A stretch of DNA of 64,000 nt from Mobula hypostoma (Eukaryota). The stretch spans positions 118,050,001-118,114,000 of the forward strand of contig NC_086097.1 in NCBI RefSeq assembly GCF_963921235.1, read 5' to 3'. Position 1 is the first letter of the stretch. Every line of letters begins with the position of its first letter. A model generated the notes under the pieces. It ran no database searches. It was not told the origin of the DNA and saw only the letters and a program-made list of their open reading frames with translations. Below, one piece after another: positions 17,760 through 18,150 of the stretch. Position numbers and translations under genes: made by a program.

Positions 17760-18150
17760 AGTGATGGTCCCTTGATATTGCACGAGAGGGCCTAGTATCT
17801 TATGAGCAAGTGCCCCCCGATCCCCATGTGACTTTAGCATATGATCCCTCGGGCAGCTCAAAGGAACTAGAAGCCACCTATTCTCCTTCCCTTGGAAATT
17901 CTGTCCTTGTGACAATCTTTGGCTTTGTAAAAGGGAAGGAGGGCTCAGCCCTGTTGGCCCCGGTGCCGGAGGAATTGTGGAATCAGTCAGGACTGGTCTC
18001 TCCCCACGTGACCCTTACAGTCGCAGAGGAACACAAGCCAAAGGAACTAGGATTTTAAGCCCATAGGCTGCAGGAACAAGCTAACCCAGCAGTGCTGGGT
18101 GTACTGCAAGATCTCCTGGGCGGAACTCTTGTCTTTTACAAGCAACCCTT
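17760..18150 (+). pseudogene. 2H phosphoesterase (CNPase-like) domain between protease and RT in ERV pol
   Basis: DPHVTLAY (His 17825) and SPHVTLTV (His 18005), 60 aa apart, in the same frame as the end of PR and start of RT; flanked by single in-frame stops at 17762 and 18056. Confidence 0.8.

Follow-up and report, generated by a model that had tools for sequence, protein, structure and literature searches.

A 2H phosphoesterase-like domain between protease and reverse transcriptase in endogenous retroviruses of rays, skates, sharks and wrasses

Introduction

Apart from protease, reverse transcriptase (RT)/RNase H and integrase, few enzymes are encoded in retroviral polyproteins. The classic case is dUTPase, an accessory enzyme in the pro/pol region of beta-retroviruses, non-primate lentiviruses and ERV-L elements. 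Here we describe an endogenous retrovirus (ERV) of the ray Mobula hypostoma in which the pol reading frame carries a 2H phosphoesterase-like domain between protease and RT. The element lies in a stretch of 64,000 nucleotides (NC_086097.1, positions 118,050,001 to 118,114,000 of the forward strand), which we call the window and from whose first letter coordinates are counted. The parallel with dUTPase is one of architecture alone: dUTPase is a small enzyme of nucleotide metabolism inserted at a polyprotein domain junction, with a position that varies by virus group, but its fold and chemistry are unrelated to those of the 2H domain.

The abstract of Mazumder et al. 2002 reportedly mentions 2H modules in the polyproteins of certain retroviruses. 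Citing Mazumder et al. 2002, one paper states that walleye dermal sarcoma virus (WDSV) carries a 2H domain (PMC9503650). Another, with reference to Basta et al. 2009, describes extra open reading frames (ORFs) for a CNPase or for macro-domain proteins in some teleost epsilon-like ERVs (PMC4977317). A first-pass annotation of our locus had suggested such a teleost precedent, and in these two papers it is in print. The teleost cases likewise involve a CNPase-type gene in fish endogenous retroviruses, there described as extra ORFs; here the domain is in frame inside pol and the hosts include cartilaginous fishes. A full-text literature search, with most of the subscription literature outside its coverage and hence yielding weak absences, returned no functional study of a retroviral 2H module, nor any account of protease-2H-RT in a single frame or of the module in cartilaginous fishes. 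The protease-2H-RT arrangement is a new architectural variant, in new hosts, of a module already noted in fish retroviruses.

Among systems already described, the closest are the walleye epsilonretroviruses WDSV (A4GTG3) and walleye epidermal hyperplasia virus 1 (WEHV-1, Q9WHI8). Their domain is of the same family and groups with the ERV domains against non-retroviral relatives (99/96), but it follows the membrane anchor as the last part of Env, the placement in which we found the retroviral 2H domain to be in print, and that of the Mobula ERV is in Pol, between protease and RT. The catalytic domain of vertebrate CNPase has by far the closest fold (Z 13.5) and has the two H-x-T-x motifs in common with the ERV domain. 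Identity to CNPase is nevertheless 15-21% in structural alignments (Foldseek), no CNPase chain was returned at E ≤ 10 in three PDB sequence searches, and Pfam scans of the ERV domains and their relatives gave no match to the CNPase family (PF05881). The ERV domain has about 136 residues against about 210 in the CNPase catalytic domain, and in place of the N-terminal P-loop kinase-like domain of CNPase it is flanked directly by protease and RT. The tRNA ligase cyclic phosphodiesterase (CPD) family, PF08302, is the only curated family reached by sequence and is alignable end to end; the small PF08302 proteins are stand-alone and outside retroviruses, however, and the ERV domain itself does not pass PF08302. 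The 2',5'-phosphodiesterases NS2, VP3 and AKAP7 have the same superfamily fold, and the viral ones lie in or beside polyproteins, but they appear to form a different 2H branch (Z 4.6-6.0 against 13.5 for CNPase) with no sequence match, and the viruses concerned are RNA viruses, not retroviruses.

Results and discussion

The domain lies in the pol frame between protease and RT

In frame 2 of the plus strand, the C-terminus of the protease (...IQCLDEGITVGVSDSRKAFWVHHPPQ) runs into a TGA stop at 17762-17764. It is followed by 97 open codons at 17765-18055 (WSLDI...KELGF), a TAA stop at 18056-18058 and 108 more codons (AHRLQEQ...LWAVSKVEVGL), with LWAVSKVEVGL, the start of RT, at 18218. The first-pass annotation had described three ORFs in one common frame with two point stops between them, and an extra domain in the pol frame between protease and RT start. 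Both statements held on translation, the second also through the Pfam RVP match upstream and the RT start at 18218. The span that had been given, 17760-18150, was correct in location and slightly short in extent, as the folded core begins at 17765 and reaches about 18172. Because sister copies have a conserved W (PQWW) at the site of the first stop and a conserved L (GFLAH) at that of the second, both stops are single point changes. The features of this part of the locus are as follows.

17762..17764, + strand: TGA stop; Trp in sister copies (PQWW)
17765..18172, + strand: 2H phosphoesterase-like domain core, modelled residues 1-136 (AlphaFold2 model, CNPase match, hhalign)
17825..17836, + strand: first H-x-T-x motif, HVTL, with His21 (model beta strand, residues 21-23)
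18005..18016, + strand: second H-x-T-x motif, HVTL, with His81 (model beta strand, residues 81-86)
18056..18058, + strand: TAA stop; Leu in sister copies (GFLAH)
18173..18217, + strand: domain-RT linker (low pLDDT, variable in alignment)
18218..18293, + strand: first ~25 RT residues, LWAVSKVEVGL... (alignment with sister copies and skate protein P0006)

Sequence evidence for a 2H phosphoesterase

A profile built from 13 own-genome copies (A1) matched 20 proteins at E ≤ 1e-3 among 1.84 billion proteins, of which 14 were kept as relatives and six left out. Among the matches of this ERV-only profile was P0016 (E 4.3e-5), a protein that scores 52.7 bits (E 5.2e-14) for the Pfam family tRNA_lig_CPD (PF08302), whose cut-off is 23, and has weaker matches to Acb1 (E 0.0014), LigT, 2_5_RNA_ligase2 and 2H-SAK. 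Alignment by hhalign of A1 with four PF08302-bearing proteins gave 97.0% and E 8.8e-11; it covers 86 columns and brings both H-x-T motifs into line. A 20-row ERV profile gave 97.4% and E 1.4e-11 with PF08302-bearing proteins. When 16 further proteins of ~215 residues were added, the alignment still spanned the domain, with a WW-L-(A/D) strand at its N-terminal end and a G-T-L-x-(Y/F) strand at its C-terminal end. The spacing of the motifs, about 60-64 residues, is similar in the ERV domain and the PF08302 proteins. H21, T23 and H81 are each conserved in 90% or more of 47 aligned rows, which cover three retroviral placements and the non-retroviral relatives. The link runs through bridging proteins: none of the 13 ERV copies matched tRNA_lig_CPD (PF08302) at E ≤ 10, and only the bridging proteins pass its gathering cut-off.

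The six proteins left out of the A1 matches (P0011, P0013, P0014, P0018, P0020 and P0021) match C-terminal profile positions only, mostly in several stretches, and in a Pfam scan those other than P0014 gave no coherent family. A search with profile A3 among proteins of near length returned only P0016 and three relatives; with P0016 already in the query, it was not counted as evidence. P0040 (PF08303) was excluded from alignment A6.

The nearest non-retroviral relatives, P0024 and P0028-P0044, form a tight family of stand-alone metagenome PF08302 proteins of ~215 aa. Their look-alikes in the ESM Atlas are mostly from tailed phages and euglenozoans, which we take as a lead only.

The predicted structure is that of a 2H enzyme

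AlphaFold2 was run on the window's own residues, with X at the stop, and a 47-row alignment. The model had a mean predicted local distance difference test score (pLDDT) of 85.6 and a predicted template modelling score (pTM) of 0.81. It is confident at residues 1-140 and disordered from about residue 141, the linker to RT, with pLDDT falling to 54, 47 and 39 in the last three ten-residue blocks. The model has the two-lobed alpha+beta 2H fold, with the motifs on central strands (residues 21-23 and 81-86). Foldseek against the PDB gave 46 hits at E ≤ 1e-3, and the rows listed at ranks 1-47 were all CNPase catalytic domains (best E 3.3e-5, TM 0.65), followed at rank 48 by the kinase-CPD entry of the fungal tRNA ligase Trl1. 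In a comparison with 48,161 chains by VIA-align, mouse CNPase (2xmi_A) ranked first with Z 13.5 and a root-mean-square deviation (rmsd) of 2.6 Å over 139 residues. Ranks 2-14, with Z 6.2-4.6, were all 2H enzymes: bacterial CPDase, rotavirus VP3, Acb1, a phage phosphodiesterase, LigT, YjcG, mouse hepatitis virus (MHV) ns2, plant CPDase, another phosphoesterase, Usb1, ASCC1 and AKAP18.

Copies in the Mobula hypostoma genome and selection on the domain

The 97 residues have at least 150 counterparts in the species' own genome (3.48 Gb), at E ≤ 1e-10 and 41-79% identity; the count is a lower bound, 150 of 292 candidates having been scored. At the 30 loci compared, the domain is downstream of protease-like sequence, and at 17 of the 30, window included, the RT-start motif follows it in the same frame. 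With skate queries at E ≤ 1e-3, 27 sister loci had a domain hit, 11 of them with protease upstream, 12 with RT core downstream and eight with both. In 86 distinct rows from 89 sister copies, His21 is kept in 75 of 84, Thr23 in 78 of 85, His81 in 79 of 83 and Thr83 in 80 of 83, and both His residues in 69 of 81.

Eight pairs of copies across two sub-lineages gave a ratio of nonsynonymous to synonymous substitution rates (dN/dS) of 0.195 (0.167-0.222) for the domain core and of 0.121 (0.072-0.154) for the adjacent RT, values that are rough because dS exceeded 1 in these cross-lineage pairs. Among closely related copies dN/dS was 0.26-0.67, nearer neutrality, and this rise is what decay after integration predicts. 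The A-versus-B comparison was saturated (dS 2.7) and its dN/dS was left unused. The domain evolved under purifying selection, with dN/dS about 0.2.

On the strength of the match of the ERV-only profile, the match of the AlphaFold model to CNPase and the purifying selection, we conclude that the domain is almost certainly a homologue of the 2H fold. Most of what the first-pass annotation had said or anticipated of the domain was borne out. Both HxT motifs are intact (HVTL at 17825-17836 and 18005-18016), and both are conserved in sister proviruses, as judged from both His residues in 69 of 81 rows, and held across species. The direct Pfam scan was empty, and the 2H profile link was obtained via bridging, in the hhalign match to PF08302-bearing proteins (97.0%, E 8.8e-11). 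In structure the best match was the catalytic domain of CNPase (Z 13.5), other 2H enzymes ranking lower, and the dN/dS comparison on it gave about 0.2, that is, purifying selection. The label 'CNPase-like' stood for the fold (Z 13.5) and fell for family membership, as no CNPase was found in the PDB sequence or Pfam searches and the kinase-like domain is absent.

In one abundant sub-lineage (group B; L012, L016, L019, L020 and others) many copies have lost the RT core, while the 2H domain is kept. In these the first ~35 RT residues lead directly into RNase H-like sequence (...PQYPLKPEA-FYEDGSSFVDP...SAQKAEL...), and the sub-lineage looks like a non-autonomous ERV lineage.

Relatives in other fishes

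One relative is a skate Pol protein of 1225 residues (P0006), in which RVP at residues 15-107 is followed by the domain at ~130-265, RVT_1 at 342-508, RNase_H and integrase (rve). When P0006 is aligned to two related retroviral pol genes, the match begins only at residue 265 or 271, and the domain is thus an insertion relative to these genes. The pol gene of the family is of class I-like type, as seen from RVP, RVT_1, RNase_H and rve in P0006, and the window keeps the protease and the first ~25 RT residues of it. Wrasse Pol proteins with the domain (P0015 and P0026) and fragments from shark and skate were also found. By NCBI names the hosts are Leucoraja erinacea, Amblyraja radiata, Mobula hypostoma, Scyliorhinus torazame, Heptranchias perlo, Labrus bergylta and L. 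mixtus. The domain is a family trait common to ERVs of rays, skates, sharks and wrasses.

In NCBI the fish relatives are annotated as 'uncharacterized' or are mis-fused to a zinc-finger gene. In P0005 (zinc finger protein 271-like, Amblyraja radiata), an ERV 2H-RT fragment is joined to a long C2H2 zinc-finger array; the gene model is an artefact of annotation or else reflects a chimeric transcript.

The same module occurs at other retroviral positions

The ERV-only profile also matched P0019, the Env polyprotein of WEHV-1 (E 2.1e-4), where the domain is at the C-terminus, beyond the membrane anchor, with both H-x-T motifs present. Among predicted viral structures the best matches were WEHV-1 Env (E 4.3e-7, 29% identity) and WDSV Env (E 1.8e-5). 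A retroviral record of 12,708 nt in IMG/VR has the domain at Env residues 1026-1138 and a pol gene without such an insert; this Env-tail domain was missed by the A1-only hidden Markov model (HMM) and is identified by A5, a profile that contains the WEHV-1 piece, and by a structural match. In a record of 10,688 nt the domain is part of Pol, downstream of RNase H (642-786) and upstream of the integrase zinc domain (from 996), with E 3.1e-7 by the ERV-only HMM. Scanning L031 (pol part), L032, L033 and L034 with the A5 profile revealed no domain, and a scan of viral contigs with the A1 domain profile gave 64 pattern matches and no relative.

In a tree of 46 rows, from which three short rows had been dropped, the retroviral domains stand apart from the stand-alone proteins (99/96), and another branch (91/84) has the protease-RT type on one side; the tree is unrooted and two viral rows sit on very long branches. 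A single capture of the module, followed by relocation, would be compatible with this tree. Two of the three placements are in Pol and the third is in the cytoplasmic tail of Env, and each of them would put the domain inside the virion. This common location is the strongest hint of an action at or just after entry.

In L035 (IMGVR_UViG_638276818_000001) the 2H module is at pol residues 840-939, at the RNase H-integrase junction, with the motifs H-C-T-L and H-V-S-L. The RNase H-integrase junction is the site of dUTPase in non-primate lentiviruses.

Proposed function and alternatives

In replicating ancestors the domain would have been translated within Gag-Pro-Pol and packaged into virions, and would then have been freed by the protease at disordered linkers or kept on the N-terminus of RT. 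Because it is disordered in the model, the linker at 18173-18217 is a likely protease cleavage site. In the particle or the incoming core the domain may have acted as a metal-independent phosphodiesterase. Its substrate would be the 2',3'-cyclic phosphate that host metal-independent RNases leave on RNA ends, those of genomic RNA, primer tRNA or RNase-generated danger signals being candidates, or else free 2',3'-cyclic nucleotide monophosphates. The ancestral domain was probably catalytically active. A cyclic-phosphate substrate is favoured because CNPase and the tRNA-ligase CPD, to which the domain is most closely related, convert 2',3'-cyclic phosphates into 2'-phosphates; by this analogy we assign it tentatively, at a little below an even chance. 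The reading as a whole, that the locus is a fragment of a dead class I ERV whose pol carries a 2H domain that served as a virion-packaged cyclic phosphodiesterase in its ancestors, appears to us somewhat more likely than not.

Several results weigh against this reading. At the level of sequence, a Pfam scan of the 97-residue ORF found no family at E ≤ 1 for the domain, and a scan of the 13 copies found just DUF2642 (E 0.064) and Acb1 (E 0.27), in one member each. PDB searches returned one antibody chain with the single sequence (E 1.2), nothing at E ≤ 10 with the A1 profile, and four chains with the A3 profile (E 0.079-1.3), none of them credible. In the ESM Atlas the skate domain scored 0.76-0.77, below the threshold of 0.9, so that the PF08302 cluster found there at rank 2 is a lead only. 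The structural model depends on the sequence link, since 20 of the 47 alignment rows are PF08302-bearing proteins, and AlphaFold2 with 13 ERV-only rows gave pLDDT 38.8 and was unusable. That His21 and His81 meet in one cleft is implied by the CNPase superposition (rmsd 2.6 Å over 139 residues) and to that extent is a property of the model. Within the genome, the motif columns are just moderately above average (median column 0.81 identical, His21 18th of 79 columns); because the median column is already 81% identical, the cross-species motif signal outweighs the within-genome one. The dS values above 1 affect the estimates of selection as stated, and activity, substrate, cleavage site and virion incorporation are all predictions.

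A broader version of the proposal is that a portable, virion-delivered 2H phosphodiesterase was captured once, moved among the three positions and was kept to disarm a host RNA or nucleotide defence at entry. It could have done so by opening the 2',3'-cyclic phosphate ends left by antiviral RNases, or by destroying 2',5'-oligoadenylate (2-5A) or cyclic GMP-AMP (cGAMP). We regard this as possible but on balance doubtful; if true, the module would be to retroviruses what NS2 is to coronaviruses, VP3 to rotaviruses and Acb1 to phages.

Of the alternatives to a cyclic-phosphate substrate, the best known among viruses is the NS2/VP3-type use of the fold, in which a 2',5'-phosphodiesterase destroys 2-5A and so blocks the OAS-RNase L pathway, as NS2, VP3 and AKAP7 do. 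VP3 (Z 6.0) and MHV ns2 (Z 5.4) are indeed among the structural matches, and 11 Pfam OAS1_C exon matches over the cut-off were found in the host genome, nine of them clustered on one contig. This OAS-like exon cluster (contig C78, 31043513-31173778, best E 8.6e-27) amounts to about three gene copies, and its presence indicates that the host has the 2-5A synthetase arm of innate immunity. The model is, however, far closer to CNPase (Z 13.5) than to VP3, ns2 and AKAP18 (Z 6.0-4.6), and the sequence link leads to the tRNA-ligase CPD family and not to the AKAP7/NS2 group. Teleosts are not known to have OAS, and against that background the presence of the domain in wrasse ERVs also speaks against 2-5A. 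An ancestral 2-5A-degrading enzyme is thus unlikely.

Slightly less probable still is the degradation of cyclic di- or oligonucleotides, for example of the 2'3'-cGAMP made by cGAS on reverse-transcription products, in the manner of Acb1 or the penguinpox enzyme. Delivery in the incoming particle would suit an enzyme needed when DNA synthesis begins, and the 2H structural matches include Acb1 (7t27_A, Z 5.9) and the penguinpox cGAMP phosphodiesterase (9bkq_A, Z 4.4). In sequence there are weak echoes of Acb1 (Pfam E 0.27 in one of 13 copies, E 0.0014 for P0016 and E 1.3 in the PDB), but every Acb1 signal for the ERV domain is below significance, and the structural likeness is no better than that to other 2H enzymes.

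A further alternative is a 2H fold that has lost catalysis and serves in Pol as a spacer, in the binding of RNA or nucleotides, or in protein interaction. In its favour, motif variants occur in some lineages (second motifs H-I-S, H-V-S and H-T-T, and H-W-T in wrasse copies). All variants seen nevertheless fit H-x-[TS], both His and Thr/Ser are the best-kept residues across the 47 rows, and selection on the whole domain is purifying, which makes a non-catalytic role improbable. Finally, a chance open frame or a host exon in one defective provirus, as the broken state of the window copy and the want of a Pfam match for the segment might suggest, is refuted by the at least 150 genome copies, the relatives in other fishes with the same placement in intact annotated pol ORFs of several species, the purifying selection at dN/dS about 0.2 and the confident fold prediction, and we give it practically no credence.

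The combination of selection, a wide host range (rays, skates, sharks and wrasses) and three in-virion positions suggests an activity useful at entry or reverse transcription. If that activity were immune antagonism, a strategy of RNA viruses, poxviruses and phages would extend to retroviruses, and the module would offer a clue to nucleotide-based defences active in early jawed vertebrates. The window copy itself is a mere fossil of this module.

The remainder of the provirus and its surroundings

The upstream part of the provirus comprises the following features.

13623..14234, + strand: probable 5' long terminal repeat (LTR), as inferred from the own-genome DNA search
15823-16767 and 16859-17335, + strand: gag remnants in two frames (ORFs)
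17391..17761, + strand: retroviral aspartic protease with a frameshift near 17663-17666 (Pfam RVP)

In the own-genome DNA search, homology to the ERV family begins at about 13613-13623 and stops at 18293. The unit of ~612 nt at 13623-14234 occurs alone in eight of 110 rows, with 91-94% identity, as expected of solo or terminal repeats; a second LTR was not found within the window. The gag part of skate protein P0025 aligns to 16483-16665 and 16871-17056, and a weak CCHC knuckle among the gag remnants (E 0.0074) is under the Pfam cut-off. The protease was recognised by Pfam RVP (E 1.8e-8) at residues 73-164 of the ORF at 17175-17696, and its frameshift is apparent from P0006, whose alignment moves from frame 3 (residues 15-100) to frame 2 (residues 100-296). 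RT core, RNase H, integrase, env and 3' LTR of this provirus were not found within the window. Since homology to the family breaks off at 18293, the window has no more than the 5' part of the provirus, and with two stops, a protease frameshift and no RT this copy cannot make the domain protein. The locus is the 5' fragment of a dead provirus of class I (epsilon/gamma-like), at about 13623-18293.

Within the ERV leader, in the interval between the probable LTR and gag, at least 16 copies of a 37-nt unit lie at 14352-15202, a region that is apparently much shorter in sister copies. Beyond the break of the ERV, another repeated element occupies 18299-19275 on the minus strand, with long ORFs at 18047-18508 and 18595-19275. 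The segment 18299-18400 has matches elsewhere in the genome, and both elements are cut at the junction. By eye these minus-strand ORFs resemble the N-terminal part of a non-LTR retrotransposon protein; Pfam assigned them no family. At 57654-59789, also on the minus strand, lies a second, unrelated retroviral pol fragment with RT and integrase, which is 24-35% identical to skate Pol P0006.

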